Counted from the first letter of the stretch, positions 17,249-64,000 are shown. The stretch is 64,000 nucleotides of DNA from an uncultured Planctomycetales bacterium (GCA_964572155.1 CAZNDZ010000002.1:83089-147088); one strand, 5' to 3'. Notes: generated from the letters alone by a model not told the origin. Program-made: numbers and translations.

Positions 17249-17257
17249 ATATACCTA

Positions 17258-17989
17258 TCACTGAGATGCGTTCATAATTTCGTTTGAACTTAAATCAAAT
17301 CCTTCTTCTTGCAATCTTTTACAAAGCTTAGGAATTATCTCTCGAATATGAGTGTTATATCCATATCTAATGATGCCTTCCAAATCAGATGGCAACTCTA
17401 AGTGCCCCTTGACTATAATTGCCATGCGATTTCTTGTCAAAGAAGACAACAACATTCCTGTCTCAAGAATTACATTCTGTCGGGTTCGTGGTTCAGCTTT
17501 ATCAGCGCCGTCCTTAAGCGCATATCCTACGTCATCAGGCGTCATTAAAACAATTCCAAAATCTGATGAATAATCCTTCCCAATTCTACCTTCTAAAGCT
17601 TCAATAATAGTTTTACCTCCGCCACTACTATTCATCAAAATAAACGGTTCCAAATTTAACCGATGCAACGCAAGTTCCAACTGATCTCTTGCTTCAACAT
17701 CATGACCATGCACAATAAAAATCTGTTTCTTAGAAGAGCCGCCTTGTGACGTTCCATTCCCAGCAAACAAATCATGCATCCTCTTTTTTGCATCATCATT
17801 TCCTTGAAACTGTATCGTCTTGTTTGATGACCACCAATGAAGGATCCCTCCATCTTTGGCGCGGAATGAATACTTATCTCCTGATTGAGTCCAGGATCCT
17901 TCAATAGTCATAAAGATTGACTTTAATTGATCAATACTACCGTTATATTTATCAGCCATTAACAATCTCCTTTTCAAAACGAACATCAA
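17258..17989 (-). CDS. TIR-like domain protein (Cap12/PycTIR-type, COG4271-like) with ~80-aa N-terminal domain of unknown function
   Basis: KQIFIVHGHDVEARDQLELALHRLNLEPFIL...GKTIIEALEG...DFGIVLMTPDDVG...RTRQNVILETGML...RMAIIVKG...ELPSDLEGIIRYGY matches the conserved blocks of the CBASS/Pycsar-effector TIR-like family. It lies between hsdS and hsdR and overlaps the hsdS stop. Confidence 0.65.
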   Translation of the reverse strand: MMFVLKRRLLMADKYNGSIDQLKSIFMTIEGSWTQSGDKYSFRAKDGGILHWWSSNKTIQFQGNDDAKKRMHDLFAGNGTSQGGSSKKQIFIVHGHDVEARDQLELALHRLNLEPFILMNSSGGGKTIIEALEGRIGKDYSSDFGIVLMTPDDVGYALKDGADKAEPRTRQNVILETGMLLSSLTRNRMAIIVKGHLELPSDLEGIIRYGYNTHIREIIPKLCKRLQEEGFDLSSNEIMNASQ

Positions 17990-19301
17990 TCTTTCCCGTC
18001 ACTGCTTCTGAAATTAACGCAGTGCGGTATTCGTTCAACAGCTCGATAGACCTCTGTTCTAGAACAATCTGCGCATCGATCTGAACAGTTTTTTTATCTA
18101 AAAAAGATGCTATAGCTTCTTGTTCTTTTTTGGGTGGAATTAAACATATAGAATTGCTTAAAGCATAATTGCTCAATCCATATCTTGTAACGCCAGACGC
18201 TTCAATTCTAAACTGATAATTAATACAATCTGCAGACAAGACCCAGAACAGATATTTTCCTTGGATCAATTGTTCTTTGGGGCGCACTTGAGCCAGATGA
18301 TAGCCACATATTAAATTTGGCTCTTCAAAGGACACATACGCAGGAATAGCAATATCGCTCCATTCTTCAGAATCTTTAGTTAGCAAAACATCCCCCACCT
18401 TTAAATGAAACTTTACAATTTCATCTGCTGAAGCTGTAGCATCCATAAAATCTAAATCTGGCGTAATTAAATCGTTATAATAAACATCAACGTAATTACA
18501 AAGTCTTACAGCTATCTCGCCTTCTTCGGATTTCTTGTTAACATTGCTAAACTGAACCTGTGCATTAAATTTCAACTTCTTAATCTCCCAATGCTTCGGA
18601 ACCTTACCTAACCATTCAATACCAGAATCTTTCATCTCAGCTTTGGGATCAATCCCTTTGGTCACTGTTTGATTAATTACTGCCGCACGCTCCTCTTTAA
18701 GAAGCTTAATCATCTGCTCCTTTTTGGTAATCAGGTCGTCAATCTGTGCAGTATTATGATCAAGAAATGCGGAAATACATCTTTGTTCACTTATATCATC
18801 CGGATACCAAATCGCTATATCTGCCAAATCTGAAGAATTAATTGCCGGATAGCTCACACCAACCGATAAGGCGCATATTCGATCAATGATCTTCTCGCTA
18901 CGTAAAATATAATAAATAAATTTTGGTTCAAGCTTTGATCCAGGAGTCACCACAGCAAAACCGGTTGAGACGATAAAATCATTCACGTCCTCTTCGAAAT
19001 GAGCAATGGCTTTTAAATAAGTTCTGACTGTGGAAACAATTGAATCACCTTTTCTTACAATTCTTCTAGCTCGAGAAGGCGCGTTTAGAAAATTAACTTT
19101 CTCCGTAATGCTATAACCCTTCTCAAGATCAACATTTCCTATGTCAATATAGTTAAACTCGTAGCTTCCATCAGTTTCCTCGCCCAAAGCAAGTTGATTG
19201 ACGCGTGAAACATATTTAATCTTTTTTATCTTCCAAATTTCAGGAATATTCCCAATCCATTTAATCCCTGAATCTTTATATGCTGGATAATACTTAAACA
19301 T
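17952..19301 (-). CDS. hsdS: Type I R-M specificity subunit HsdS (two target-recognition domains)
   Basis: 449 aa with duplicated TRD architecture and conserved HsdS repeat regions (e.g. the conserved spacer helix LLKEERAAVINQTVTKGIDP). Confidence 0.8.
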   Translation of the reverse strand: MFKYYPAYKDSGIKWIGNIPEIWKIKKIKYVSRVNQLALGEETDGSYEFNYIDIGNVDLEKGYSITEKVNFLNAPSRARRIVRKGDSIVSTVRTYLKAIAHFEEDVNDFIVSTGFAVVTPGSKLEPKFIYYILRSEKIIDRICALSVGVSYPAINSSDLADIAIWYPDDISEQRCISAFLDHNTAQIDDLITKKEQMIKLLKEERAAVINQTVTKGIDPKAEMKDSGIEWLGKVPKHWEIKKLKFNAQVQFSNVNKKSEEGEIAVRLCNYVDVYYNDLITPDLDFMDATASADEIVKFHLKVGDVLLTKDSEEWSDIAIPAYVSFEEPNLICGYHLAQVRPKEQLIQGKYLFWVLSADCINYQFRIEASGVTRYGLSNYALSNSICLIPPKKEQEAIASFLDKKTVQIDAQIVLEQRSIELLNEYRTALISEAVTGKIDVRFEKEIVNG

Positions 19302-20235
19302 AAGCTAGTCCCAGATCAGATGTATCCTTCTTAAATGGCTTTTGCTGATGAATCAAAACATGCCCATTTTCTAATGGAATTTTAATCTTCCTTAGCTCAA
19401 CGCGCCAATCCTGATATTCCTTAACAATATTCTCGACCCCAGCATGTTCATTAAAAATAACCTTATCTTCAGCAGACTGAACCATCAATCGGTTAAGCAT
19501 TTCAACGCCTTGCGGTTTTATTGCTCCCACACTGTCACTTTGGCGCGGCTCTGTGTCATGTAAAGGATGAATAATTATTGCTAAACGTGGAGTTATGGGG
19601 CAATACAAATCACATTGATTAGCGTTCCAATATTGCAAACAAACTGGATTATCGCTAGTCAAAAATTGAACAGGTGTTTCATTCTTAAATACAATCCATG
19701 GCGATGTAGCTAGGAGATTTTGAACGCCAATCAAAGCATTAATCCCCAATGCCTGTGGAAATGCTTGCTTGATGAGAGCCTTGGTTCCTCCATGCTTACG
19801 AATTGTTTCTATTGCTTCACGATGCTTTGAATTAGGATCTGATAATTCTTTCTCTTCCAATTTATCATACAAATGCTGAACAATATGCGAAAGGCCACCA
19901 ACACCCAACCTCACAGCCGTTGGAGTGCAGGCTCTTAGATAAGCAAGGTACCCAGCTATTAAATGCTTTGTTGTTGCGTCATATATATTCGTAGAAATGC
20001 TATTAACACAATCAGTCCATTTAGGTTCGACGATCTTAAGAAAATCCTCAACAGCTCTTGGATTATCTGGAAAATATTCGTTTGAACTCCAGTCCACTTC
20101 ATAACAGATTGACTTTATTGGAATAGCATTTTGTCGACTTAAGTTGCTTTTTCGAAAAACATTAATAAAATCAGGGTTGCTAGTCAGTCCAAATCCCCTC
20201 AAATATGTTTGAGCGACATAATGATCTTTAGCCAT
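19294..20235 (-). CDS. DUF4238 family protein
   Basis: N-terminal HYVAQTYLRGF matches the DUF4238 signature (HYVPQFYLxxF). The gene sits between hsdM and hsdS. Confidence 0.6.
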   Translation of the reverse strand: MAKDHYVAQTYLRGFGLTSNPDFINVFRKSNLSRQNAIPIKSICYEVDWSSNEYFPDNPRAVEDFLKIVEPKWTDCVNSISTNIYDATTKHLIAGYLAYLRACTPTAVRLGVGGLSHIVQHLYDKLEEKELSDPNSKHREAIETIRKHGGTKALIKQAFPQALGINALIGVQNLLATSPWIVFKNETPVQFLTSDNPVCLQYWNANQCDLYCPITPRLAIIIHPLHDTEPRQSDSVGAIKPQGVEMLNRLMVQSAEDKVIFNEHAGVENIVKEYQDWRVELRKIKIPLENGHVLIHQQKPFKKDTSDLGLAYV

Positions 20236-20833
20236 TTAGAACCTCTGAATTCATCTTCCCGATCCAAGCATGTAACGCGTGTTTTATTTCGTCGGTAGTC
20301 ATACCTTTCATTCGAAATATTTCTTCAATTATATCCTCTGCAACAGTCAAGGTTTCAACCGCCACAGTTTTATCTAATTTCTCATAAGCCGAAATATCTG
20401 GCATGCCTTGAATTTGAATACCAGGTAAATTAATGGTCTGATGGGTGCTTTTAAAATGCATAAGCTTGTTCCTTAAATTCTTTAATTTCATAAACCGCTG
20501 ACCTACCCCCTCACTAAGATCAATCTCCTTATCAAAAAACCTCTTCGGCCATGTTTTAATTTTGCGGTCTAGACTCATATTTTCATCAAGATCTTTAATC
20601 GTTTGATCGCTACAACTTGAGCAGTGAGCCTCTCCAGCCAAAACCCTGAAATACATGTTAAAAAATGTTTCAACAATAGCTACGCTCATAAACACGCAGG
20701 GCAATACTTTTCGTTGAAGATTTGTATCGTCTCGCTCGACCTGAACTTCTTGCACCATTTCGCGCAAGCATCCAAAGTATTCCCAAATCATTTTATTCGG
20801 CGAACCAAAATGTGAATTAGCTGCATTATTCAC
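20228..20833 (-). CDS. Hypothetical protein, candidate HEPN-domain (RNxxxH motif)
   Basis: 201 aa, mostly helical by composition. KNLRNKLMHF contains an R-N-x3-H HEPN-type motif. The assignment is inferential. Confidence 0.4.
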   Translation of the reverse strand: MNNAANSHFGSPNKMIWEYFGCLREMVQEVQVERDDTNLQRKVLPCVFMSVAIVETFFNMYFRVLAGEAHCSSCSDQTIKDLDENMSLDRKIKTWPKRFFDKEIDLSEGVGQRFMKLKNLRNKLMHFKSTHQTINLPGIQIQGMPDISAYEKLDKTVAVETLTVAEDIIEEIFRMKGMTTDEIKHALHAWIGKMNSEVLNG

Positions 20834-22835
20834 CTAAAACTTCTCCCAATAGCCCTTCAGTTTCTTTTTCTAAAGCCAAAATATCTTTGCGTATCTCATC
20901 AAGACTACGTAATGGCTTATATTTATAGAATTCCTTCGTGAAATTGATTTCATACCCGATCTTGTCCTTGCTCCTATCCATCCACGCATCAGGCACATGA
21001 GGCATGACCTCACGCTTAAAATACTCGTCAATATTATCGGACAGCGGAACATTCTCCGCGTCGCGCAATTCCGCATCAGCTTCTGGCTTGCCTTCTTTAT
21101 CCAGACAAATCTCCGCTGTCTCATCCCTCTGGGAAAGAACCTCAAGGATGGATTTCATAACAGGCGCTTTGATCTTCAATCCAGCCTTATCAATGGCCGC
21201 ATCTATGATTGCTATAAATTTTTCTCGGTTATTATAGGTCTTGGCGCTATCCAATCCATTGAGCATTGCTTTAATCGCCTTCTGTAAAGCTTCGCCCTCC
21301 TCAATTTCCTTAATACCTTCCTTGCCCTTCTTCTTGGATTTGGCAAGATTAACAAATCCTGACTGCTGATCCAATAAGGCTATTCTTTCTGGGGATACCT
21401 GAAAACTCAATCGAAGCGGCCGCTCGACTGTCACACGGGTATAACCAAAATATTCATTGGGGAATATCTTGCAATGCTCTCCAGCTTTAAATTGTCCATA
21501 TATCTTTGTGATTGTCCCGATATGATCCTCGGCTATTTCATTACGTTTATTACCGAGGCTTCTGGCCATCTTCTTAAAGAAACCAACCCCATTGATAAGC
21601 TGAATCTTTCCTTTTCGATCTTTAGCTTTACGATTAGTAACAATCCAAATATAAGTTGAAATGCCTGTGTTATAAAAAAGCTGATCCGGCAAAGCAACAA
21701 TTGCCTCTAACATATCATTCTCAATAATCCACCTACGTATCTCACTCTCTCCGCTACCAGCTCCACCAGAAAACAAAGGCGAACCATTAAAAACAATCCC
21801 TAAACGAGCACCACCATTTTCCGGACGCATTTTGGAAATCATGTGTTGAAGAAACAAGAATGATCCATCGCTTATGCGTGGCAATCCAGCACCAAAACGC
21901 CCGGCGTTTCCTAACGTTTCATGCTCCTTCAGAATTTCACCCTCTATCTTCTTCCACTCAACACCAAAGGGAGGGTTGGAAAGCATGTAATCAAACTTCT
22001 CGTCCTTGAGCCCGTCTTGAGTAAAGGAATTACCAAACTTAATTTGATCTGGATTCTGTCCCTTAATAAGCATGTCGGAATTGCATATCGCATATGACTC
22101 TGGGTTAAGCTCTTGTCCAAAAACACGAAGGCTTGCATCAGGATTTAATTCACGCAAATATTCCTCTGCAATGGACAACATCCCACCCGTTCCGCAAGCC
22201 GGATCATAAAGCGTCTTCACAATTCCCTTTTTGGTTAATACTTCCTTGTCATTTAAGAAAAGAATATTAACCATCAGACGAATAACTTCACGCGGGGTAA
22301 AATGCTCCCCTGCCGTTTCATTGGAAAGGTCAGCAAACTTACGGATCAACTCCTCGAAAATGTAACCCATTTCAATATTGGGGACGACTTCAGGATGGAG
22401 ATCAACTTCAGCAAACCGTTTTATGATTAAGAAAAGGAGGTCGGATTTATCAAGCCGTTCAATATGATCTTCAAAATTGAAATGATCAAGAATATCCCTG
22501 GCATTTTTAGAAAAACCAGCAATGTAATTGCGGAGATTAGCGGCAATATCGCTTGGGTCAGCAACAAGCTTCTGGAAGTCAAACTTGCTTTTGTTGTAAA
22601 ATGTTAGTTTTGCCTTCTTTTTTAGAACTGTTTCAATTGCTTCAGGCGATAACCCTTTGGTCTGCGGTAAATATTCCAAGACAGTTAATTTTGTTGGCTC
22701 TAATACGCAATCCAAACGGCGCAACACCGTGAGTGGTAAAATTACCTTCCCATATTCAGATTGTTTATAGTCTCCACGAAGCAAATCCGCGATGCCCCAT
22801 ATAAAATTTGCACGGTCTTTAAAATTATTAGCCAC
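20826..22835 (-). CDS. hsdM: Type I R-M N6-adenine DNA methyltransferase HsdM (long form, 669 aa)
   Basis: HsdM N-terminal domain, AdoMet motif I (DPACGTGG) and catalytic motif NPPFG (LSNPPFGVEW). C-terminal extension present. Confidence 0.9.
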   Translation of the reverse strand: MANNFKDRANFIWGIADLLRGDYKQSEYGKVILPLTVLRRLDCVLEPTKLTVLEYLPQTKGLSPEAIETVLKKKAKLTFYNKSKFDFQKLVADPSDIAANLRNYIAGFSKNARDILDHFNFEDHIERLDKSDLLFLIIKRFAEVDLHPEVVPNIEMGYIFEELIRKFADLSNETAGEHFTPREVIRLMVNILFLNDKEVLTKKGIVKTLYDPACGTGGMLSIAEEYLRELNPDASLRVFGQELNPESYAICNSDMLIKGQNPDQIKFGNSFTQDGLKDEKFDYMLSNPPFGVEWKKIEGEILKEHETLGNAGRFGAGLPRISDGSFLFLQHMISKMRPENGGARLGIVFNGSPLFSGGAGSGESEIRRWIIENDMLEAIVALPDQLFYNTGISTYIWIVTNRKAKDRKGKIQLINGVGFFKKMARSLGNKRNEIAEDHIGTITKIYGQFKAGEHCKIFPNEYFGYTRVTVERPLRLSFQVSPERIALLDQQSGFVNLAKSKKKGKEGIKEIEEGEALQKAIKAMLNGLDSAKTYNNREKFIAIIDAAIDKAGLKIKAPVMKSILEVLSQRDETAEICLDKEGKPEADAELRDAENVPLSDNIDEYFKREVMPHVPDAWMDRSKDKIGYEINFTKEFYKYKPLRSLDEIRKDILALEKETEGLLGEVLGE

Positions 22836-29720: not shown

Positions 29721-30473
29721 CTATCGAATAACAACTTTTGTCCCTATAGGTATTATATCGTACAACTCTTCAACATCACGATTTTTCATCCGCACACAGC
29801 CACCTGATACGCTTTGACCTATAAGTTCTGGGTAAATGGTGCCATGAATGCCATATTTCTCTTTATTGAAACCAAGCCATCGTGTTCCTAAGAAATTCTC
29901 AGGACTTCCTGCCGGAACAATAACCCCTCGATGAAACCAAATGGGATTAGGATAACGGTCCTTAATCACAAATTCACCTATAGGCGTTGTGGTTTCAGAC
30001 TTACCTGTCGAGACAGCATATGTTTTAAGCGTCTTATTGTTTAAGAATAGTTTCAAACGATTTGTTGTCTTATCGACTTCTACCCTAAATGGCGCTGTCC
30101 ACAATGAAAGCTTCTGACCAACTATGATGGTATCACCTTTTAACTTATTTCTTTTTTGAATAAGCTCAACCGTTGTACTAAATTCTTTTGCAATCTTACC
30201 TAATGTATCGCCAGTTTTGACAACATATAATTGAGCCTCAGGCGTATTGATGTTTGAATGGATAATTTCAAACATCACATGCTCCCACTCTTTAACAAAT
30301 GTCTCAAATTCAGCCACCTCTGATGGATTGCTTAAGATCTGTTCCAGAATGCGACGCTCTTCGATCAAATTTTTAGATTGATGCGCGACGATTAACTTTG
30401 CGTGTAACGAGGATTCTTGTGCGTATAAATGGGTGGCATTAAAAATTAATATCAAAAAGATAATTAATTTCAT
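29721..30473 (-). CDS. LysM domain-containing L,D-transpeptidase (YkuD family)
   Basis: LysM (YVVKTGDTLGKIAKEF...IVGQKLSL) plus catalytic YGIHGT...SGGCVRM motif. Signal peptide present. Confidence 0.8.
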   Translation of the reverse strand: MKLIIFLILIFNATHLYAQESSLHAKLIVAHQSKNLIEERRILEQILSNPSEVAEFETFVKEWEHVMFEIIHSNINTPEAQLYVVKTGDTLGKIAKEFSTTVELIQKRNKLKGDTIIVGQKLSLWTAPFRVEVDKTTNRLKLFLNNKTLKTYAVSTGKSETTTPIGEFVIKDRYPNPIWFHRGVIVPAGSPENFLGTRWLGFNKEKYGIHGTIYPELIGQSVSGGCVRMKNRDVEELYDIIPIGTKVVIR

Positions 30474-30916: not shown

Positions 30917-31172
30917 AAGCGTTGATTAACTCTTCTTTTTTTTGGCGCGTTAATTGTTTAATTTTTATTTCTGCCTTAAGTGCTGCACTTAAAGATCGTA
31001 ATCTTTTTAAATACACCAGCGTAACTGGGCCCTTACCTCTTAAATATTTTGCACCTTTGCCACTATTATGCTCTTCTAATCTTTTTTTGATGTCGACAGT
31101 GTAGCCCGTATAATACGTGCCTAATCGACATTGCACTATATAGACCACATACTTGGCAGAAGATTGCTTCAT
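30906..31172 (-). CDS. GIY-YIG nuclease family protein (YhbQ/UPF0213-like)
   Basis: YVVYIVQCRLGTYYTGYT...RLEEHN is a GIY-YIG motif. 88 aa. Confidence 0.7.
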   Translation of the reverse strand: MKQSSAKYVVYIVQCRLGTYYTGYTVDIKKRLEEHNSGKGAKYLRGKGPVTLVYLKRLRSLSAALKAEIKIKQLTRQKKEELINAYES

Positions 31173-32740
31173 TTAAGGATGCTATTTAAAAGACCTTTGA
31201 TGGTTTCTTTTGAAGAATCCCCTAAGATATTGCCGAGTTCTGGATTCTTTTCAATAACCTTATCCAGCTGTTCACCCAAGGCATTGGTTGCTTCGCTGGT
31301 CGCTACTTTCTTAGCAATGTCATTTACATCCGCACTAAAGCCAACTTTAGGGACGATGCCTGAAATGCGCCCTGAAATTTGTATCGATCCATTATCATTC
31401 AACAAGCCTTCTATTTGCTTTACAGATTTAATTAATTTAGATGAGAGCTCTTTTTCAATCATGGCTTTAACAGGGATATCCACTTGCATATTAGCCAAAG
31501 CAACCGCACCTTGCGCCTCAAGAGAAACTTGATCCATACTAAGAGTAAATTTTTGAATCTTATAATTTCCTTTTGCAATGGTGCTCTTTAATTCAGACCC
31601 ATTGATGATTGTTTTATTGGACATTTGCAGATCAGGCAAATTACCTTTGGTCGCTTCAAGCAAGACGGGCCCAACAACAGGGACAGCACTTAATTGATTT
31701 AAAAGAGCTTTGGTTACATTAAAATCTTTAATCTCTCCTTCTAAAACAAGGGCATCAACCCTTCCTGATAAATCGGGTTTGGATAAATCCATCTCAATTT
31801 CACTATAAATGGAATTAAGACCAATCGTAATATCAGCTTCTTTAAAACTTAACTGCTGTAATCTTACCTTAGCATTCACACCACTTAAACCTTTTGCAGA
31901 CACATTGATCGGTTCTAGCGTTGCACTCAAGGCCCCTGCAACGTTTGAAGGCCATGGCATTTGAGCGAGCGATGGCAACGCCACTTTAACGTGTTGCATA
32001 TTAAGCAAGGCCAAATCGCTGTTAACGCTCAAATCTTTAACTTGAGCTGACTGTTTAAGAGCATCAATAGACACTTTGGCTTTAACAAAAAAATTAACAG
32101 TTTGTGATAAAACAGCAGCTTGCAGTGCAATAGGAAAATCTTGTGTTAATGAGAAATCGTCGATATTAACATTGACCTTATCAACAATGATACGCATCGG
32201 CATATCTGGCGCTTTATCCGTGTAATCGACAACGCCGTTAATGATCGAAATACGGCGAACAATAAAATCTGGGATTGTTGGACTCGAAGATGTTGCAACA
32301 TTTGTCGTCGATGTTGATGATGATTCTGTTGACTTAGGTCCAATGGCTGCGGCATTGATCATTCCTTTTTCATCACGAATAATATTCACATGAAGATTAG
32401 ACAATTGCATGGATGTAATAACAATACCATGTTTAAAGATAAGCTCATTAAGATCTAAGGTTGCATCAATTTGTCCTATCTTCAAAAATGCTTCTGGACC
32501 AAAACGCGCATCTTCAGCAACAAGGACATTAATAATGTTTAAATCAACACCTTTCGAAAGACTTAAACTTAACTTTGCTTTTTCTATCAAAACTTGACGA
32601 CCTAAGGCGTTTGACGCTTGAGTGGTAATTGGCCCTAAATATTTATTCAAATCAAATGTGCTAATAAAAATGAAGACGGCCACAATCAATACAACGATTA
32701 AGGCTACAATTCCTAATAAAACGTTCTTTAAGATTTTCAT
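31169..32740 (-). CDS. asmA: AsmA family outer-membrane assembly protein
   Basis: N-terminal TM anchor, then long beta-rich region. AsmA-like N-terminus (KILKNVLLGIVALIVVLIVAVFIF). Confidence 0.65.
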   Translation of the reverse strand: MKILKNVLLGIVALIVVLIVAVFIFISTFDLNKYLGPITTQASNALGRQVLIEKAKLSLSLSKGVDLNIINVLVAEDARFGPEAFLKIGQIDATLDLNELIFKHGIVITSMQLSNLHVNIIRDEKGMINAAAIGPKSTESSSTSTTNVATSSSPTIPDFIVRRISIINGVVDYTDKAPDMPMRIIVDKVNVNIDDFSLTQDFPIALQAAVLSQTVNFFVKAKVSIDALKQSAQVKDLSVNSDLALLNMQHVKVALPSLAQMPWPSNVAGALSATLEPINVSAKGLSGVNAKVRLQQLSFKEADITIGLNSIYSEIEMDLSKPDLSGRVDALVLEGEIKDFNVTKALLNQLSAVPVVGPVLLEATKGNLPDLQMSNKTIINGSELKSTIAKGNYKIQKFTLSMDQVSLEAQGAVALANMQVDIPVKAMIEKELSSKLIKSVKQIEGLLNDNGSIQISGRISGIVPKVGFSADVNDIAKKVATSEATNALGEQLDKVIEKNPELGNILGDSSKETIKGLLNSILK

Positions 32741-53648: not shown

Positions 53649-54149
53649 ATGACAACAGCTAAAATACCTACACATACAATCAGCGTTCTGGTGGCTAACA
53701 AACCCGGCGTCCTTGTGCGCATTGCTCTGGTCTTTGCCCGTCGTGGTTATAATATTGACTCCTTGGTTGTTTCTCCGACCATCAATCCAAAATTCTCACG
53801 TATGACGATCACTGCTAAAGGTGACTTAGAAACTTTAGATCAAATCATCAAGAACGTGAGCAAATTGATTGATGTTATCCATTGCGGTGAACATGATGCG
53901 ACACATTCGATCGAGAAAGAATTGGCTTTGCTTAAAGTAAAAGCCACACCAAGTGTGATAACCTTTATTAGTAAATATGCCCGTAAATTCCGCATTAAGG
54001 TTGACGACACATCGGAAGGGTTTTATGTGGTCGAACAAACTGGCACCACAGCCGAGTTAGATGAATTCGAAGCAATCATGAAGAAACACACCGTTGAAAT
54101 GGTTCGCACCGGTAAAGTCCTCATCGCCAAGGGTAAAGAAAAAACTTAA
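53649..54149 (+). CDS. ilvN: Acetolactate synthase small (regulatory) subunit
   Basis: N-terminal ACT domain HTISVLVANKPGVLVRIALVFARRGYNIDSLVV. 166 aa, directly downstream of ilvB. Confidence 0.8.
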   Translation: MTTAKIPTHTISVLVANKPGVLVRIALVFARRGYNIDSLVVSPTINPKFSRMTITAKGDLETLDQIIKNVSKLIDVIHCGEHDATHSIEKELALLKVKATPSVITFISKYARKFRIKVDDTSEGFYVVEQTGTTAELDEFEAIMKKHTVEMVRTGKVLIAKGKEKT

Positions 54150-54151
54150 AA

Positions 54152-54571
54152 CTATTCTCGATCTTTTAAGCTACAGGGTAGGATTTTAGGTAGTTCTTTG
54201 GGTGGTAAAATCACTTGGGCAATTTCAATATAATCGCCATTGTGTTCTATCGATGATATCTGGCAACGTTCTGCGTCGATCGATGGATGATCAATCCCTA
54301 AATATTGTGCAATCCCTGCTTTTAAGGCATCTAATTCTAAATACATGATAAACGCAGCTTCTTCATCAGCATTTAGATTAAGCACAGTGCGCAACATATA
54401 AAAGTCTAACTCAAGAATGTCTTCAAGACTTTTACCATGACAATACGCCGACAAACCTGTCCCGCCGCCAATCTCACTTGAACACGTGATCTTAGCAAAT
54501 TTAAAGCTATCTAAGCATTCATTGGCATCAAGCCTTATATTAAGTCCTGACGAACTATCGCTACACGGCAT
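54152..54571 (-). CDS. Degenerate NifU/IscU-like protein
   Basis: CSSEIGGG...CHGKSLEDI...ALKAGIAQY parallels the IscU blocks CGSAIASS...VKGKSLDEA...AIKAAIADY. The N-terminal Cys ligands are only partly conserved. Confidence 0.35.
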   Translation of the reverse strand: MPCSDSSSGLNIRLDANECLDSFKFAKITCSSEIGGGTGLSAYCHGKSLEDILELDFYMLRTVLNLNADEEAAFIMYLELDALKAGIAQYLGIDHPSIDAERCQISSIEHNGDYIEIAQVILPPKELPKILPCSLKDRE

Positions 54572-54580
54572 ATGTCACCA

Positions 54581-55486
54581 TTACTTATTCATCCGATCTT
54601 TAAGCGCCTGCTGCATGTCTTTGGCACGTTCGCGTGCATCGCGGGCTTTTTCCTTTGCATCCTGCATCTTGTCTCGAACATCTGCCATCCTATCTTTCAT
54701 TTGTTCAACCATGGCAGCAACACGTTCCTTCGAACTCTCTAATTGCTCAAGATTTTGTTTACGCACCTCATTTAAACTGGCTTCCTGCTCTTTAACGTGA
54801 CTAAGCATATCATCTTGTCTGCTAATTGTATCATTGATCTTTTCTTGGAGCACGGCACTACGATCTGTCTTTAGGGCTGCAATATTTTGTGACTGCTCCT
54901 TTAATTTTGCTTTCATATCCATAATTGATTCTTTAGCTCGCTCATTATAGTTCCTAGACTTTTCAATGATCTCACGCTGCAATTCTACTAATTTCGCAGT
55001 TTGAATGCGCATGGCATTTAAGCCATTTTCTACTTCATGTTTTGGGCGCAATAATTGAGCAATATCTACTTTACGAACTTGTTTGTCTAATGCCGCTATC
55101 CCGTCGCGCAATTGATCATTGAATTGAATCAGTGCATTTTGATCACTCGCCAAGTCTAAGGCTTGTTGATTAAAATCGTTAATGGATGCTTTTAATTTAA
55201 CCAAATCCATGTCTTCGAATTGATTATTGCTAACTTGCTCATAGAGCTTGCTTGCATTGGTGCTTTCTTCAATAAGATCGTTCTTTTGGGCTACCAATGA
55301 ACCCGCTAGTAAATCTTGCTGAATCTTGACCATTTGCAACGTACCCTTGATATCTTCAATGGCTTGGCTTGCTGATATATTTTTACCTTGATTATTCATG
55401 GTGACTGGTCGGTAAAATGCTAGATAACCAGCAAACAAGAAACCTATGATGGCAATAACTGGTGATAAATAGAGAAGTCTGATCAT
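54581..55486 (-). CDS. Membrane-anchored coiled-coil protein (N-terminal TM, ~270-aa coiled coil)
   Basis: Single N-terminal TM ([17 protein letters not shown]) then continuous heptad-rich Q/E/K/L sequence. Overlaps the yyaL stop by 4 nt. Confidence 0.5.
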
Positions 55487-57474
55487 ATCAACTGTCTTTC
55501 AATCATTTTCATATCGGTAATGGGTAACCCACAAACGCCTTGTTTACAAATTTGAACGGACCAAGGATCCATGCTTGGCTCACGTTTAATGCTCAAATTT
55601 GGCTTGAAGCATTTATACACTATATTTTGAATAGAGACAAGTTCTTGAGGTGCAACCTTCCCTCGTATGGTTACTTGCAATGGACCTGCAACATGCATCT
55701 GTAAGGCTTGTAGGAAATAGGTATATCCTTGTGGTGCTTTTAGGACAGTAGGTAAGAATCGTTTGAAAGTCTTTATAGCCACATCTTGATAGGTTGTCTT
55801 ATCGGTTAAAAAGAATAATTTCATCAAAACAACAGCTGCCACTGAATTTCCAGAAGGCATGGCTCCATCGTAAATCTCAACTGGACGCACAATTAAATCA
55901 TTGTTTTCTGGTGACATAAAAAATCCACCGTGCTGATCTTCAAAATGCTGCACCATATAGTCGGTTAGCACTTCTGCTTGTTGCAGGTATTTTTGATCAA
56001 AGGTGGCTTCATAGAGATGCACTAGCCCTAAAGCAAGATATGCATAATCATCCAACATAGCTGTGATACCTGCCACATTTTCATGCCAACGGTGCTGTAA
56101 CATACCATTTTTATACATATTGTCTAAAATATAATCAGCAGCTTTGGTAGCATGATCTATATAGCGTCTATCATTTAGCACCAACCCACCAAATGCGAGT
56201 GCCGCGATCATTAAGCCATTCCAGTCGGTTAAGACTTTGTCATCAAGGTGCAAGGCCATGCGACCGCGTCTAAAGGATAATAATTTTGCTTTAGCCTGAT
56301 CCATCATAACCTGATGCATTGGATCAAGAGGCCTTGTTTGAAATAAAATGTTTTGACCTTGAAACTCACCGTGGGGGTCATGATCAACATTACCTTGTGG
56401 TTGCACGCCATAATACATAGCAAAAACATCGGCGGTGGCTTTGTCTAATTGATCGTAAATTTCCTTATGCGTAAAAACATAATACGCCCCTTCTTGGCCC
56501 TCTGCATCGGCATCGTAAGCACAATAGAAAACACCTTCTTTGCTCGTCATATCAGATAAGACATAATCCATGATTGATCGACATACGCGGGCATATAATG
56601 GATCTTGAGTTATTTGAAAACATTGGGCATAAGCAAAAACAAGCAGGGCTTGATCATAAAGCATTTTTTCAAAGTGTGGGATTTGCCACGCCGCATCGGT
56701 TGCATAGCGATGAAACCCTGAAGCAATTTGGTCATGTATCCCACGAGCTGACATGATGGTTAGTGTCTGTTCTACCTGTGGCAAGGTGGGCTTATCTGAC
56801 CCGTGCATGGATAATAAAAATGATAGTGTGTGCCCCATAGGAAACTTAGGCGCATGTGAGAATCCACCATTTTGTTGATCAAATTGTGAGGCAAGATTTG
56901 TGACAGCGACAGTTAATGCTTTTGAATCAATGACAGCGATTGGCGATGATGCCGCCATGGATTGTTGCAAAATCAAGAGCAATTCTTGAGAAGATGTGGT
57001 GATCCCCGCCTGATTATGATCCCATGCATCGCGCATCGATAAGAGCACATCATTAAATGCCGGTGAACCCCATTTTGCTATTGGGGGGAAATATGTGCCT
57101 CCATAAAAAGGCTGACCATCTGGTTTTAAGAAAACAGATAAAGGCCAACCACCTTGACCGGCAATAGCAATCACCGCATTCATATAAATGTGGTCAATAT
57201 CTGGCCGCTCTTCACGATCAACTTTAATGGCAATAAAATACTGGTTTAAAATATCTGCGGTTGATTGATTCTCAAAACTTTCATGTGCCATGACATGACA
57301 CCAATGGCATGTGGAATAACCAATCGAAAGAAAGATTGGTTTTTGTTCTTTAACAGCCTTCTCAAAGGCTAATGGGCCCCAAGGAAACCAATGGACAGGA
57401 TTTTGAGCATGCTGTCTTAAATAAGGACTATTCTCTGCAGCTAGATGATTAATTGCCATTCGAAGGTAAATCAA
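55483..57474 (-). CDS. Thioredoxin-domain protein YyaL (DUF255 + six-hairpin glycosidase-like domain)
   Basis: N-terminal thioredoxin-like [16 protein letters not shown], conserved [10 protein letters not shown] and C-terminal (alpha/alpha)6 region. 663 aa. Confidence 0.8.
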
Positions 57475-60400
57475 AAACTTCTAAGGTCTTTTTAATGGCT
57501 TGTTCACGATCAACAGGCGCTGGCGTGTCTTGTGAAGCGACGCTTGACTGTTTCGACGTCGTTGGTTGTGATGTTGTTGCATTAACTGCAACAGGTGCGG
57601 GTTGGTTTAAAAACATTTGTGCTTGAGTCATGTACTTTTGGGTTTGTTTAAAGTCAGGCAAAACGTCTTGTAGATCTTTAAATTTATTGTAAGCCGCTTG
57701 ATAGTTTGCTTGTGCGTACAAGCGCATGGCTTCATCATAAATGGCAGAAGCACTGTCATTTAACTTTTGTTGGATCACACGGCGTTCTTCATCCAATTGC
57801 TTTTGATGTTCACGTGCTTGACGCTCTAACTCTTCACGACGTTGACGTTCTTTCAGTGCTTCTTCTTGTTGACGTTTGATTTCATCCTTACGGCGTTGTT
57901 CTTCTAGCTTTTCTTGTTGTTGACGTTCTTTATCTTTTAAGATTTGAGCCCTACGTTGTTCGTCACGTTTTTGGCGATCTTCCAATTCTTTCTTCTTGCG
58001 TTCTAATTCTGCTAAGCGTTCTTGTTCTTGTTTCTTTTTACGATCAACGAGTTCTTGTTTCTTGCGTTCAACTTCTTTTGCGCGATCTTCAATGGCCTTT
58101 TTCTTATCTTCTTCAGCTTTTTTCTTTTGTTCTTCTAATTCTTTTTTGCGTTTTTCAATAGCTTCTTTTGCAGCCAACTTCTTTGCTTCTTCCGCTTTGG
58201 CCTTTTCTTCTTTAGATTGCTGCTCTTCAAAATATTTCTTACGTTTATCAGAAAATTCTTTTTGTTTCTGACGATCATCTTGAGTCACAACCTCAGCCTT
58301 TTGCACAACAGCTTCAACAACAGGCGTCGTAACAACAGCTTCTTGTTTTGGTTCTGGAACTTCCATTGTAATTGGTTCAATAGGCTTTACTGGTTCTTCT
58401 TTTACAGCTGGTTCTTGACGTATTGCTGCAGGTATTTTTCTAAATTGTAAATCTTCTTCTTCTTTTTTACGTTTAGCTTGTTCTTTCAAGCGTTGACGTT
58501 GTATGCGTTCACGTTCACGTTCTTTTAACTTCATGCTTTCAATCTGAATGCGTTGCTTTTGTTCTGCTTCTTGGGCTAATCGACGCTGACGTTCTAACTG
58601 AGCGGTTAATTCTCTTTGATGTGCGCGTTCCTTCTGTGCTAAAACATTCGCCATCTTTTGTTTTCTAATCTGCTCTCCAATAAATTCACTACGCTCTTTC
58701 TCACTGGCAGCGTCAGACCTTGCTGCAGCTTTTTCATAATATTTATCAATATTCTTGATATAGGCTTTTGCCCCTGGGTAATTTTGTAAAGCTAAATCAT
58801 CAAAAATGACTTTCGCAGCGGTGAATTTTCTTTGTTTGTACAGAGAAACTGCGTGATCGAAAACTTCTTCTTTTTGTCGCTTTGCAGCATCTTGGGCGTA
58901 ATCTTGCTCTTCACGCTTTGCACGCTCCTCAGCTAAACGTTGAGCACGATTGCGGCGTTCTTGATCTTCGTATTCTTTCTTCTTAGCTTTAATTTCAGCA
59001 AGCTTTTCTTTGCGTTGATCAACAACCATGGCCTCTGATTTTGTTTGTGCTTTAATGCGTCTGGCTAAAAGTTGCTCTTCCACATCAACAGATGGTTTGA
59101 TCTTTTTGATTTCTTTGACAACTTTAACATCTTTGATGACTTTAATTTCTTTAGTCGGTTTTGGTTCTTTTGTTTCTTTTATTTCTTTAACAACCTTGAT
59201 GACTTTGATTTGGCTCTCTTGTTCTTGAACATCTTCCATGGCCATGGTTCTCTTTAATGCTTCTAAGGTTTCCAAAACTTTTTCTAATTCTGTAAACTTA
59301 GCCTTAGCCATTTGGAAATCTTTACGACGAGAAACTTCTAAGATCTCATCATTTAAGTTAACAGCTTTGTCAGCCAATGCTTGAACTTCCGATTCTTGAG
59401 CAACACGCAATTGACGTCTACGCTCTGCTTCTGCCTTGCGGCGTTCTTGTTCCGCAACTCTCTGAGCCATGAGTTCACGTTCACGCTTTGCTTCCAATTC
59501 TTTAATGCGATCTTCTTCTTTATGTGTTCGCTCTAAAACAGCTTGACGTTCTGCTTGAGCTGCATCTTCTTTAATATGAGCTAAGAACCAACGTGTCATC
59601 TTGTAATTAGGCATGTCATTTTCAATTCTCACAAAAATGGGCATGGCGCTTTCATAGTTTTGATTGCGCAATAACATGATGGCTTCATCATAATCATCTT
59701 TAACTGCAGCTAATCTTTGTTCACGTTCAATCTTTAATTGACGTTGACGTTCAGCTTCTTCTTGGGCACGCAATTCACGTAAGATGCTTTCCTTTTGCAT
59801 CTTAATACGATTAAGCGCATCATCGACTTTAACCATGGTTCGCTTAACTGGGGCCATGCGTTTGTCTTCTGCCAATGCATTGATTTTTGCCATGACGCTA
59901 GCACTTTGCTTTGATAATGCTTCAATCAATTTTGCTTCATCAATTTCTTCTTCTTTGGTCTTTGGTGCAGATGGGACAACGCTTTGAGAACTAATTTGTT
60001 CTTTCATTGCCTTGTCTTGAATCTCACGTTTTACTTGTGAGTCTCTTGATTTTTGTTCTTGAGCTTTAATGCGCTCTTCTTCGAGAGCTTTACGGCGTGC
60101 TTCTTGAGCAACAATTTGTTCTTTCTGTTGTTTTTCTTTTTCCTTAATATAGGTGATCTTGGCAATAAATGCCTTTGTTGATTTATAACCTGACAAGGTT
60201 TTTTCAATATCGTTGAATTTTTCTAATGCTTCATCGTAAGATTTTTTATCAAATAAGTTAACAGCGGCTTGATATACAAAGCTTACTTGATCTTCTAATT
60301 GTTTAATGCGTTGTTTCTCTTTTTCTTCTGCTTCTTTTTTCTCTAAAGCTTCTTTCTTGCGACGAGCAACTTCTTCTTCCCATTGTTGCATGGCAAGTTC

Positions 60401-61414
60401 TTTGGCCTTGATTTGATCAATGCGTGCTTGCTCTGCAGCCATATCTTTATCTGCACGGGCTAAATAATCGCGTGTTGCCTTATAATCTGGGACAACCCAT
60501 TCTACTTCACCAAATTTCTTTTTTGCTTCCATGAACTTCTTATTCTTATAAAGTGTCACGGCTTCTGCATAAACACTATCTGCTTGAGCGTTGATCTGAG
60601 TCTTACGATCTTTTTCTTTCTTTTCAATTTCTTTTCGCCATGTTTCTTTTTCTCGTTCTCTTGCTTTTTCAGCTTCAGCTTGTTGACGCTGAACTTCTTT
60701 CGAATTTTGTTTTGATGAAGTGGCTTCGCTTTCTAAAATATTTTGATCAATGATCCTAAGATAGCTTTGCGTTCCCTTATAGTTTTCTGACAATTCTTGC
60801 ACATGGTTAAACATGTCTTTTGCTTCTTTAAATTTCTTTTCCTTAAAATAGGCAACAGCCTGATTGTATGCTGTGGCGGCATCTAACAACTTGGCTTGTT
60901 TCTCTTGGGATTCAATGCGCATTTGTTGTTTTTCTTGAGAACGTAAAGCAGCTTCTTGGGCTTTTAATTTCGTTGCGCTTTGATCAATGTACTTAAGCAT
61001 TTCCGGGTGATCTGTAATCGCGATGGCTTTTTCAAAATATTCACGTGCTTCGTTAAATTTGCCTTCATCTTGCAATTGAAGGCCATGTTCATAATATTCA
61101 CGCGCACGTTCTTCACGTTTTTGATTACGCTTGATAACTGTTTGTTCTTTAATTTTTTCGTTAACGCGCTTGATATTTTCGCGGGATTTGATGATGAGCT
61201 TTTTTAAATCGTAGACATAACTTGCTGCTGTTTCATCTGATGCGTCTTGTGTTACAGAAGCTTCTTCATCTTCAAGTTTAGATGATGGGGGCTCTGGAGA
61301 AATTGCTGAAGCGGCGGTATCGACAGATGGTTCTTTATCTAGACCGCTGGATGGCTGACCAGCAAAACAAGGATTCGCAACGAACAAAAATAAATATATA
61401 AAAATATAAAACAT
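57449..61414 (-). CDS. Giant secreted coiled-coil protein (~1320 aa) with dispersed TPR-like modules
   Basis: Start set at [19 protein letters not shown] (signal peptide), 5 nt downstream of the OMP stop. At least 8 copies of a ~45-aa module (Y..A..LY...KF.EA...F......P.YK.T..YL) are separated by E/K/R/Q-rich coiled-coil segments. Confidence 0.7.
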
Positions 61415-61419
61415 AATCG

Positions 61420-64000
61420 TTATTGTATCACACCCTTTTGTGCATCGGCTACTATTTTCTCCCATAATTTTCTTGCCTTGAGATATTCGCCGGAACGATA
61501 GTAATCTTCTGCGGTCTTATTGTATTGTTGCAACTTTTCTTCATAAGCAATTTGTGTGCGGATAAATTCTGACGCTTCATCAAACATCATTTGACCAGCC
61601 ATGATGATGTCTTTATAAATTTGTTGTGCTTCTGCTAGCTTCTTTTGTTTTTGAGCAGCCGAGGCAACAGCAAACATATGATTTAAATCTGCCACAACTT
61701 TACTATCAGGCTTTTGTAATTCTTTGGACACCATGGCCCATGCCCATTCACTGACTTTATTATCCAACCATTTTTCTCTAGCGCGTTGCTTTTCTGCCGG
61801 AGAGCGATCATATAATTTTCCAGACATGCGGACAAACGGACCTTGCGACGTGTAGTTCAAATTGGTCAAATCATCATTAAACTGTGTGAAATTCCAGCCC
61901 AACCCTAATTGCGCGTTATCGTTGATATTACGTGTTGCTTCAAGCAATACGCCTTGCTTACTATCTTTTGCTTCCACTTGAGTTAAATTACGTAATTCTG
62001 AACTTAACGTCCAATCGCGATCTAACTTGTAATTGATGCGATGAATCATCAACCATGTGTGCGTGCGATTAAATGCAAAGCCTGTAACTTTCTCGTCGTT
62101 AATACGAATTGCAAACTTTTCTGCTAATTGCCAACTTTCATTGACATCATACACACCTTCAAGTCCAAAGACTTGAGCAACATTTCGCTCTACATCCAAG
62201 GCTGTGCCCGCTGATTGTCCAATCGGACCAGCGTTCTGCGTATATGCGTATTGGGCAATTAAGTTTAAGCGATCAAAATTAACAGGTCGATACGCAGCAC
62301 CTAAGATAATTTGTTGATGACGTTGTTCAATGGTGTTGGTCGTTACATTTTCTGTCCTAGAAAATTCCACTTTTGCAGACACCGACATGTTATCCGTGAC
62401 TTTTCCTTCTAATGCATTATAGAAGACGAATTGACGTTTATTCTCATTGCCATTATCAAAACGAAATTCAATTTTTGCTGAATCTTTTAAACGTTCGATG
62501 GCAAGCTCAGGATCTTTCCAAACATAACCAGCACCCATGGTAATCGCGGTGCGGTCTGTCCTACTGCCATCAAGATTCTGAACACTGCCCTTTTCTAAAC
62601 TTCCTTGTAAAGCCAACTTATCGTTAACATCACCTGTTAAACCAAAGATATTAGATTGTGTGACGGCACCACTCTTATCGTCACCCAAAGTGCGTGTCAC
62701 AGATGCTTCCAAAGCTTTTCCATCTTGATTGCGGGTTAAGCCATACTTGGTATTGGTTGTTGACCCGTCGGGATTGATCGTAAAGGCTTTTTCGCTAACC
62801 GCTTGCAAACGTTCACTGATCTTCGCTTGATCGGTCATGGCGATCGTCGTGGTCTTGCCACCCTGAGCATTCTCATCCACCTTAAGACTCGATGTTGTGG
62901 TTAAATTATCATTAATATGTTTGGTGGCATCAATGGCCATGGTTTTTGTTTGCCCACCACCATTAGCTAGATCAACGGCTAAAGCTGTCTTGATCGTCGC
63001 ATCTTTATCTAAACCTAAAGCGGTTGTCCCTGTCACTGCTGCTGTGGTAAATTGTCGCCCCATCATATCGGCAGTCTTACCAACCACCGCTTCAAGCTCG
63101 GTACCTTCATTAAGCTTAACTTTCGCCTTTGTGCCCACCGTTCCGCTGGTTGTCTTTGTTCCCGTCGAAGAATCCGTCATGGTAACACCCGCATTGGCTG
63201 TGATGTTTTCATTGAACTTTTGTTCAGCGCCAAACGTTGTGGTCTTGTCCATTTGACCTGTTTTGAATTGAGCCATGGTATACGACGTATTAAAGGCTAA
63301 TTTATCGGTCACATTTTGTGTAGCTCCAACCGTTGTTGCCGTACCCTCTTGGCTAAATGATTCTTGAGCGCTAACCTTTAATCGATCCGTAACCCGACCT
63401 TCAGCTCCAATGGTCGTAACGTTCTTTGTTGGATCATTGATATCAAATTGTTGGCCTGCGGTTACGGTAACACGACCATTGAGCGCGTATTCTGCTTTAC
63501 CCGCCAAGGCTTTTGTGACTTGATTTGTTTGCGTCACAATGTCGCCAATCTTATCCTTAACTTCTTGGATTTGATATGCGCCTGTCAACTTTAAGCGTTC
63601 TGTTTCATGCACAACCTGAACAAGCGTCGTACTTGTCTCACTGGCACCAACTTGAGCAACCGTTTGTAAATTACCGTTATTAATCAATTTTTGTATATCT
63701 GTTTTTGCGGTCAAGCGTGTGACGGGCGTTAAATCAAATGTTAATGCTAAGCCCAGCATTTCTTTGCCTTGTTGTGACGAGGCCTGAACAGACGTAAATG
63801 AATCTTCTATCCATTTATAATACGTGCTGACACCCAAGCGGTTAAACAAGCGCGCATCACCCCTGATACCAAAAGCTTCACCTGTTGACGCATCACCTGA
63901 TTGCAATTGGGTGAAGGTAATACCACCGTCGGTTGAAACATATGAACTAATGCCTGTGGACTGTGTTTTAGCAAATTCTGCTTTCACCGTTGCATCAGGA
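61420..64000 (-). CDS. Large outer-membrane beta-barrel-like protein with C-terminal ~120-aa helical TPR-like extension; 5' end outside window
   Basis: Thr/Gly/Asn-rich alternating-hydrophobic (amphipathic beta-strand) composition over ~700 aa, ending in a GLGWNFTQF...GPFVRMSGKLY barrel-closing-like strand. Then comes a helical tail containing the YYRSGEYLKARKLWEKI module. The frame stays open to the window edge, and the putative start at 63987 is GTG. Confidence 0.5.
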   Translation of the reverse strand, partial: PDATVKAEFAKTQSTGISSYVSTDGGITFTQLQSGDASTGEAFGIRGDARLFNRLGVSTYYKWIEDSFTSVQASSQQGKEMLGLALTFDLTPVTRLTAKTDIQKLINNGNLQTVAQVGASETSTTLVQVVHETERLKLTGAYQIQEVKDKIGDIVTQTNQVTKALAGKAEYALNGRVTVTAGQQFDINDPTKNVTTIGAEGRVTDRLKVSAQESFSQEGTATTVGATQNVTDKLAFNTSYTMAQFKTGQMDKTTTFGAEQKFNENITANAGVTMTDSSTGTKTTSGTVGTKAKVKLNEGTELEAVVGKTADMMGRQFTTAAVTGTTALGLDKDATIKTALAVDLANGGGQTKTMAIDATKHINDNLTTTSSLKVDENAQGGKTTTIAMTDQAKISERLQAVSEKAFTINPDGSTTNTKYGLTRNQDGKALEASVTRTLGDDKSGAVTQSNIFGLTGDVNDKLALQGSLEKGSVQNLDGSRTDRTAITMGAGYVWKDPELAIERLKDSAKIEFRFDNGNENKRQFVFYNALEGKVTDNMSVSAKVEFSRTENVTTNTIEQRHQQIILGAAYRPVNFDRLNLIAQYAYTQNAGPIGQSAGTALDVERNVAQVFGLEGVYDVNESWQLAEKFAIRINDEKVTGFAFNRTHTWLMIHRINYKLDRDWTLSSELRNLTQVEAKDSKQGVLLEATRNINDNAQLGLGWNFTQFNDDLTNLNYTSQGPFVRMSGKLYDRSPAEKQRAREKWLDNKVSEWAWAMVSKELQKPDSKVVADLNHMFAVASAAQKQKKLAEAQQIYKDIIMAGQMMFDEASEFIRTQIAYEEKLQQYNKTAEDYYRSGEYLKARKLWEKIVADAQKGVIQ

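Follow-up and report, generated by a model that had tools for sequence, protein, structure and literature searches.

Giant adhesins anchored in the outer membrane and served by accessory proteins are a known kind of bacterial system, with which we compare here a cluster of four co-oriented minus-strand genes at the end of a 64,000-nucleotide (nt) stretch of DNA, hereafter the window, from an uncultured Planctomycetales bacterium (GCA_964572155.1 CAZNDZ010000002.1:83089-147088). The size of its barrel, the helical tail behind the barrel, and a partner built of modules resembling tetratricopeptide repeats (TPR), which we call the module protein, are new variants of that kind. The four genes encode the end of a giant barrel-terminated protein, the module protein, a protein of the DUF255/YyaL family, and a membrane-anchored coiled-coil protein of 301 amino acids (aa). 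Similar in architecture are the type Va autotransporters, in which, as in the nearest orthologue of the giant protein (locus L009), a Sec signal and a long N-terminal region rich in repeats precede an outer-membrane beta-domain at the C-terminus of the same polypeptide. By contrast with them, the cluster protein matches no Autotransporter beta-domain of 12 strands (Pfam PF03797, E ≤ 0.1), about 42-46 strands are predicted instead, and the barrel comes with a 129-aa helical tail and a dedicated module protein. TamB, of the AsmA family, is reported to assemble autotransporters and other barrels together with TamA (PMC11014939, PMC11341756), and the link between the cluster and an AsmA/TamB-type protein parallels such TAM-assisted assembly, as relatives encode an AsmA-like, inner-membrane-anchored protein and the barrel protein in one cluster. 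Unlike in TAM, however, the barrel protein is not of the Omp85/POTRA type, the AsmA-like proteins are short (520-630 aa), and in the window no such gene adjoins the cluster. The POTRA domains and 16-strand barrel typical of the Omp85 proteins TpsB, TamA, and BamA find no Pfam or NCBIfam match here, and the best-modeled part of the barrel reaches a template-modeling (TM) score of 0.34 against BamA.

Among large single-chain barrels, SprA has 36 strands in a solved structure, SlpA 30, LptD and MtrB 26, and 38 are predicted in Deinococcus proteins. The cluster protein shares with SprA, SlpA, LptD, and MtrB a long uninterrupted antiparallel meander of amphipathic strands, but it has no detected sequence relationship with them, reaches TM-scores of 0.13-0.30 and, if it forms one barrel, has more strands than any of those named. 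OmpM/SlpA connectors carry N-terminal SLH domains and a stalk before the barrel; in SlpA both coiled coil and SLH are N-terminal, whereas the helical extension of the cluster protein is C-terminal, following the barrel, and the L009 orthologue has no Pfam match above threshold, hence no SLH domain. For the module protein, the comparison points are TolA, CpoB (YbgF), and the ER/K single-alpha-helix spacers of eukaryotic motors. With TolA domain II, CpoB, and these spacers it has in common long, charged, proline-free helices in an apparently exported protein with TPR-like units; in contrast with TolA and CpoB, the units stand isolated about 100 aa apart instead of in tandem, a putative cleavable signal peptide replaces the TolA anchor, and the protein is far longer. 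The cluster also differs from Tol-Pal in lacking any TolA or CpoB match in Pfam or NCBIfam and in its neighbors, which are ilv (acetolactate synthase, downstream) and glutathione genes, not tolQRB-pal. More broadly, no Tol/Pal, Bam, Lpt, or secretion-system family is found among the Pfam and NCBIfam matches, as a previous reading of the stretch without database searches (the sequence-only reading) had anticipated. The third gene is a clear member of DUF255/YyaL/SPATA20 (PF03190, 243 bits), with a CHWC motif and a C-terminal six-hairpin-like domain, but its fixed place within this cluster is undescribed as far as our literature search showed, and our searches of the literature returned no description of the cluster or of the barrel family. 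Neither large protein matches a curated family or a solved structure, apart from a marginal TPR_2 match in the module protein.

The giant adhesin-like protein and its barrel-like region

Since the frame of the first gene (61420-64000, minus strand) is open up to the window edge and its closest orthologue, in L009 (2612-12604), has 3,330 aa (76% identity), what the window holds is only a fragment: 859 codons and the stop at the 3' end of the gene for a giant surface protein that terminates in a barrel. Judged from this orthologue, these codons make up the last quarter of a ~3,300-aa protein resembling adhesins. The sequence-only reading had described a beta-barrel-like protein of more than 855 aa: the barrel-like fold stands, whereas the size and nature of the protein have to be revised, the window containing its last 859 residues. 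Passenger and signal peptide would lie beyond the window edge, where roughly 2,470 N-terminal codons are to be expected; they are present in L009, where an N-terminal signal peptide is accompanied by T/N/G-rich repeats that resemble those of beta-helical adhesins; L009 also has downstream neighbors in common with the window (acetolactate synthase genes). The other full-length relatives measure 2,341-3,384 aa and some contain CLIPPER/DUF11 domains, which a 2025 survey describes as isopeptide-bonded stalk domains of fibrillar adhesins (PMC12617251). A word-index search with the barrel protein gave 17 relatives, which with few exceptions belong to genome bins of Candidatus Omnitrophota, and an exhaustive phmmer search over 1.84 billion cluster representatives gave 1,175 matches, in which residues ~445-728 correspond to the extreme C-terminus of proteins of 1,000-7,612 aa; those close relatives in which the match spans the entire query measure 2,341-3,137 aa. 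The segment of residues ~445-728 (61816-62667, minus strand), with an invariant NIFGL.GD motif, is conserved family-wide. Pfam and NCBIfam returned nothing above cutoff for the barrel protein, and a PDB sequence search with the barrel profile returned no matches; its weak sub-threshold Pfam matches are to two barrel families, DUF2490 and OMP_b-brl. In two loci outside Omnitrophota (L006, 1-11423, from a Nereida genome, and L007, 1-11753, from another bin) the barrel protein is encoded by a separate gene (1,140-1,250 aa) that starts 5-20 nt after a giant repeat gene, the latter with CLIPPER domains in L006 and no recorded Pfam match in L007. A Y1-type transposase gene (Pfam Y1_Tnp) is found close upstream of the gene for the giant barrel-terminated protein in many loci of Omnitrophota (L005 at 9325-9951, L008 at 812-1441, L018, L020, L023, L027, L039, L041, L045, and L052); the window ends before the position where it would lie.

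Structure prediction supports an outer-membrane-barrel-like first product, in agreement with the earlier expectation that this region would be modeled as a barrel. An AlphaFold2 model of the fragment based on 15 sequences (model 1; mean pLDDT, for predicted local distance difference test, 76.5; predicted TM-score, pTM, 0.43) contains a beta-meander of 42 long antiparallel strands plus two short ones at residues 3-727 (61819-63993, minus strand) and four helices at 734-856; about three further strands lie upstream of the window edge according to the alignment with relatives. A second model (model 2; residues 396-859, 46 sequences) has 18 strands and the four helices, with a pLDDT of 91.2 and a pTM of 0.70. 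In Foldseek comparisons of the two models with the PDB, the matches listed are almost only outer-membrane barrels, for model 1 LptD, TonB-dependent transporters, SlpA, MtrB, and FimD, with the lipid-wrapping beta-belt of ApoB100 also among them. The 18-strand fragment fits 22-strand transporters best (TM 0.41-0.45), better than smaller barrels (BamA 0.34, OccK 0.27, FadL 0.19), and therefore has, as modeled, the curvature of a wide barrel; it did not close on itself. In the family alignment every strand is amphipathic, the hydrophobic face scoring 0.50-0.64 and the other 0.17-0.28 across segments, and equally so in the three segments of the beta-region. Two blocks, residues ~4-265 and ~445-728, are conserved throughout the family and enclose an insert that varies. 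The last strand (61810-61860, minus strand) has a beta-signal-like end (...YTSQGPFVRMSGKLY), which is internal since the tail follows. A C-terminal Y, F, or W is the usual barrel-insertion signal, and 69 of the 92 tail-less relatives that stop at this strand, among the matches listed, end in one of these residues; the strand preceding the tail in the window, ...GPFVRMSGKLY, is the internal equivalent of that end.

The module protein, the helical tail, and their co-occurrence

The tail that follows this strand had been put at about 120 residues and is indeed present, with ~129 helical residues (731-859; 61423-61809, minus strand) predicted by AlphaFold2 to form four helices, mostly at pLDDT 83-97, of which the last pair is TPR-like. 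It has many near-invariant positions among relatives and is confined to the Omnitrophota subfamily of the barrel family. Because barrel ends normally face the periplasm, the tail would by analogy be periplasmic.

Five nt after the stop of the barrel gene (TAA at 61420-61422, read base by base) begins the gene of the module protein (57449-61414, minus strand; ATG at 61414), whose 1,321 aa are counted from the methionine that opens a hydrophobic segment; an alternative upstream start, ATG at 61465, would overlap the barrel gene by 46 nt. The N-terminus resembles a signal peptide (61361-61414, minus strand; 18 residues, then GQ), and the 12 single-frame sequences of the module protein (11 distinct) all start with a hydrophobic segment followed by an AXA-like site. 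These signal peptides, judged by eye from the sequence, support the earlier proposal that the protein is secreted. By its sequence, the module protein has no lipobox, membrane anchor, or barrel.

The body of the protein consists of TPR-like modules joined by charged helices. A hidden Markov model (HMM) built from seven hand-aligned copies recognizes seven clear modules of ~48 aa (62-75 bits) and one degenerate copy (5.9 bits), where at least eight had been claimed. All on the minus strand, they are module 1 (aa 104-150, 60965-61105, 61.7 bits), module 2 (aa 179-226, 60737-60880, 69.7 bits), module 3 (aa 278-325, 60440-60583, 75.3 bits), module 4 (aa 377-423, 60146-60286, 67.0 bits), module 5 (aa 571-617, 59564-59704, 73.0 bits), the degenerate half-module (aa 696-715, 59270-59329), which has a counterpart in L002 (7.0 bits), module 6 (aa 849-893, 58736-58870, 63.0 bits), and module 7 (aa 1222-1269, 57608-57751, 67.8 bits). 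The only Pfam match of the protein at cutoff is TPR_2 in module 1 (aa 107-133), marginal at 27.3 bits against a cutoff of 27; TPR_12 and TPR_1 match module 2 weakly, below their cutoffs, and homologues carry precomputed TPR_1 and TPR_2 assignments. TPR proteins are recognized by at least three adjacent repeats in a superhelix, whereas these modules are single units, 28-328 residues apart. Orthologues in other genomes carry 6-19 copies, often ~100 aa apart, at ~25-66 bits (weakest clear copies 13-16). As Tandem Repeats Finder detected only three short low-score DNA arrays in 54000-64000, the modules are not DNA tandem repeats. A K/V/I-rich stretch (aa ~738-772, window 58900-59200) coincides with an 18-nt tandem repeat (59105-59152) and is largely absent from L009. 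A word-index search with the module protein returned only eight homologues, all unnamed or from Omnitrophota, and a PDB sequence search with it returned no matches.

The sequence-only reading took the E/K/R-rich stretches between the modules for coiled coil, which our heptad test speaks against. Their a/d hydrophobic occupancy, a simple measure of heptad periodicity against shuffled sequence, is 0.321 versus 0.315 +/- 0.017 after shuffling. They are 40-53% charged (most 44-53%), with a proline plus glycine fraction of 0-0.03 and 0.12-0.23 i/i+4 opposite-charge pairs per residue, and nine helix-compatible runs total 639 aa. Being charge-rich, nearly free of proline and glycine, and no more periodic than shuffled sequence, they are best read as ER/K-type single helices and probably not as coiled coil. 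The longest run (aa 1038-1220, 57755-58303, minus strand), of ER/K single-alpha-helix type by composition, has no proline or glycine and a best a/d occupancy of 0.19; the enclosing spacer (aa 894-1221) is 53% E/K/R/D, and residues 894-1220 show no heptad periodicity relative to shuffles. About 60 residues of this run are deleted in L009, whose module protein is 56% identical, with highly conserved modules and freely deletable spacers. Near the C-terminus, a motif R-x-x-A-I-x-x-x-L-D-x-F-D (57470-57508, minus strand) recurs at the C-termini of the L015, L034, L032, L005, L052, and L009 proteins.

In a scan of one genome per species, which returned 55 loci whose six-frame translations were searched with the window proteins and the module HMM, the order barrel with tail, module protein, [DUF255], [membrane coiled-coil protein], where square brackets mark genes that may be missing, recurs in ~50 Omnitrophota loci, with an AsmA-like gene closing the cluster in most. 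The module protein is encoded by the next gene in 46 of the 47 tail-bearing loci (those with at least 1.5 kilobases, kb, of downstream DNA) and in none of the three tail-less ones (Fisher p=2e-4, kinship uncorrected). Of the 18 loci whose downstream DNA is long enough, 11 contain DUF255 and 12 an AsmA-like gene; the membrane coiled-coil family directly follows the DUF255 or module gene in 11 loci (the window and 10 others) and directly precedes the AsmA-like gene wherever that is detected. Loci of several named Omnitrophota genera keep the same order at 33-76% protein identity, and L009 has exactly the order of the window, including a NifU-like fifth gene and no adjacent AsmA. These comparisons support the cluster as a co-conserved unit, as had been supposed. 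The further idea that the barrel and module proteins are linked draws support from their co-occurrence and none from the module they were thought to share. A module common to the tail, YyaL, and the 301-aa protein was rejected: the module HMM gives insignificant scores to the tail (3.7 and -2.3 bits), the 301-aa protein (-2.7), and YyaL (-3.0). One relative's tail reaches the Pfam TPR_2 threshold, and the likeness of tail and modules is, at the level of sequence, that of a generic single TPR-like helix pair only, not of the same module. The module-protein gene is a single open frame in only 12 loci with at least six modules (among L001 and L009-L063), and in L001 gene calling breaks each of the barrel, module-protein, and DUF255 genes into two or three pieces; such splits could reflect genuine frameshifts or misassembly of repetitive, A-rich DNA.

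The ORF (open reading frame) listing contains all four minus-strand genes (61420 to beyond 64000, 57449-61414, 55483-57474, and 54581-55486) as first delimited, and most of the tight junctions proposed for them hold, with the 5-nt gap between the first two and a 4-nt overlap (ATGA) between the YyaL and 301-aa-protein genes. The exception is the overlap of 26 nt between the module-protein gene, whose TAA falls within the YyaL start region, and the YyaL gene: it needs a TTG start at 57474, whereas YyaL orthologues start at the position equivalent to an ATG at 57459, the likely start, which gives an overlap of 11 nt. A scan of the cluster for promoters and terminators was uninformative (promoter-like sites fewer than in shuffles; no intergenic minus-strand terminators).

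The DUF255/YyaL gene (55483-57474, minus strand) encodes a thioredoxin-like domain with the CHWC motif (Pfam Thioredox_DsbH, PF03190, E=1.4e-72, 243.4 bits against a cutoff of 27) and a six-hairpin, (alpha/alpha)6-like domain. As its upstream region leaves no room for a signal peptide in this genome, the protein is probably cytoplasmic here. Three orthologues (L008, L039, and L045) have signal- or lipobox-like N-termini, e.g., ...FLLSAC in L039, most others having none, and the compartment may differ between lineages. The 301-aa protein (54581-55486, minus strand) has one predicted N-terminal transmembrane helix followed by a true coiled coil, with a heptad occupancy of 0.58 versus 0.44 +/- 0.025 for shuffled sequence. 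That it might be the remnant of an AsmA N-terminus was rejected, both proteins coexisting in L002, L010, L013, L015, L025, and L034. A fifth co-oriented gene (54152-54571, minus strand; 139 aa), 9 nt further downstream, is weakly NifU/IscU-like in Pfam and NCBIfam; a NifU-like gene also closes the cluster in L009, L015, L034, and L035. No AsmA or DUF748 profile matches within 54152-64000, and the AsmA-like gene of the window (31169-32740, minus strand; 523 aa; Pfam AsmA 4.2e-11, DUF748 1.8e-14) is 22 kb away from the cluster, surrounded by unrelated genes for transporters. It matches the AsmA genes in the clusters of relatives and may be the counterpart, displaced, of the gene at the end of most of those clusters, its position suggesting a rearrangement in this lineage and in L009.

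Candidate function of the cluster

With a probability of roughly 45%, we read the cluster as a module that anchors and assembles a giant surface adhesin in a two-membrane, Omnitrophota-type bacterium, the periplasmic tail docking the module protein. The barrel would be inserted by BAM, which would leave its C-terminus, and hence the tail, in the periplasm, and the N-terminal repeats would be displayed outside the cell, as in autotransporters. The module protein would stay in the periplasm and dock the tail by way of either the TPR-like units or the conserved peptide at its C-terminus; its stiff, charged helices would be the spacers or struts connecting the very large barrel with the cell wall or inner membrane. 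In the inner membrane, the coiled-coil protein (in relatives, the AsmA-like bridge) would form the end of this link or else provide lipid or assembly help for barrel insertion. Several points weigh against this scheme. Closure and strand number of the barrel are putative, model 1 having a pTM of only 0.43 and TM-scores to solved barrels of only 0.13-0.25, the fit of the 18-strand fragment to 22-strand transporters speaks for curvature and shows no closed pore, and the central beta-region (residues ~265-445) is length-variable or absent in relatives, which is odd for one closed barrel. We infer the surface display of the N-terminal part by analogy, and likewise infer the contact between tail and module protein, to which the module HMM adds nothing, as it has no significant match to the tail; the module protein could also be exported beyond the periplasm. 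Most loci come from one phylum, so their co-occurrence counts are not independent events. DUF255, without a signal peptide here, is absent from ~40% of clusters, no AsmA-like gene adjoins the cluster in this genome or in L009, and one relative of the barrel protein (P0118) begins with an OmpA-like peptidoglycan-binding domain, more than 700 residues before the barrel. Unlikely, by our estimate, is a bolder form in which all ~46 strands (42 long and two short in the window, about three upstream) make one closed barrel that, with its periplasmic four-helix tail, the strut protein, and the AsmA-like bridge, would constitute a new phylum-wide class of envelope-spanning adhesin apparatus, maybe used by the ultra-small Omnitrophota for holding on to host cells.

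The best-surviving alternative, although we also hold it to be unlikely, is that barrel and module protein are a secretion pair in which the wide barrel is a translocon and the module protein its cargo, passing through it or beside it to build a coat or fiber on the surface in the manner of two-partner secretion. The module protein would be suitable cargo, as it has a signal peptide but neither a lipobox nor an anchor nor its own barrel; the two genes are neighbors in every case, the arc of the modeled barrel has wide-barrel curvature and, outside Omnitrophota, the position of the barrel gene directly after a giant CLIPPER-repeat gene also resembles cargo plus transporter. Nevertheless, Pfam and NCBIfam reveal neither POTRA/Omp85 domains in the barrel protein nor a TPS-like secretion domain in the module protein, the latter co-varies with the presumably periplasmic tail and not with the barrel itself, and the tail-less relatives that follow giant repeat genes lack a module protein.

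We consider it more doubtful still that the cluster is primarily an envelope tether that fastens the outer membrane to the inner membrane or the wall, setting the width of the periplasm, like OmpM/SlpA, Lpp, or TolA, with adhesion secondary or absent. Deinococcus SlpA, a 30-strand barrel with a periplasmic coiled-coil stalk, is among the solved fold matches, long stiff helices would suit such spacers, P0118 offers a family member with an OmpA-type peptidoglycan-binding domain, and phylum-wide conservation is what housekeeping envelope genes would lead one to expect. Yet the 3,330-aa L009 orthologue has no Pfam match above threshold, hence no SLH, OmpA, LysM, or other wall-binding domain, and no such domain is among the matches of the four window proteins. 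The ~2,400 aa of N-terminal repeats and the CLIPPER domains of relatives fit a surface fiber better than a periplasmic tether, and the length of the spacers varies freely even between close relatives, which would be unexpected for a ruler.

Lower again we place the possibility that the beta-region is not a single membrane barrel, forming instead two or more barrels, or a long amphipathic sheet on the membrane surface, of which no more than the final ~16-18 strands would be inserted. The two conservation blocks with a variable insert would suit such an arrangement, as would the low pTM of model 1 and the presence of ApoB100 among the matches listed. However, the 18-strand fragment failed to close into a barrel of 16-18 strands and fits 22-strand barrels better than those of 14-18, no part of model 1 forms a sub-barrel superimposable on structures of 22-26 strands (target-normalized TM ≤ 0.30), and the strands are equally amphipathic in all three segments. 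Finally, that unrelated genes are merely packed together in a compact genome is very improbable: the DUF255 and NifU-like genes have no evident envelope role, DUF255 being probably cytoplasmic here, and the promoter and terminator scans are uninformative, but the order recurs across named genera whose proteins are 33-76% identical, 46 of 47 loci with the tail also have the module protein, and the genes overlap or lie 5-9 nt apart.

Other features of the window and significance for Omnitrophota

Elsewhere in the window, an L,D-transpeptidase gene (YkuD with LysM; 29721-30473, minus strand) lies near the AsmA-like gene and indicates remodeling of peptidoglycan cross-links. A type I restriction-modification system (13826-22835, minus strand) comprises R (1,140 aa), S, and M subunits with small ORFs between them; its R subunit has a weak sub-threshold Peptidase_S24-like match at the C-terminus. 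It is adjoined by a large serine recombinase gene (9169-10956, minus strand; Resolvase, Recombinase, and zinc-ribbon domains), and the two may mark a mobile island. A further ORF of 1,011 aa (2037-5072, minus strand) has no Pfam match at E ≤ 1e-4.

The Omnitrophota have not been cultured; most are ultra-small, and they are believed to be attached to other cells or to prey on them (PMC10066038). Their large genes for the most part lack annotation. Few loci for large proteins keep their gene order across this phylum; the cluster is among them and, as such, a candidate for attachment or envelope machinery. Its barrel family, with 1,175 cluster representatives, sits without annotation at the ends of giant repeat proteins. 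A conserved helical extension at the C-terminus, periplasmic by analogy, together with a co-inherited partner makes the protein a rarity among barrels. A single closed barrel of ~46 strands, if true, would exceed both the 36 strands solved for SprA and the 38 predicted so far, and the module protein would illustrate strikingly how a bacterium uses long charged single helices as spacers, probably in the periplasm.

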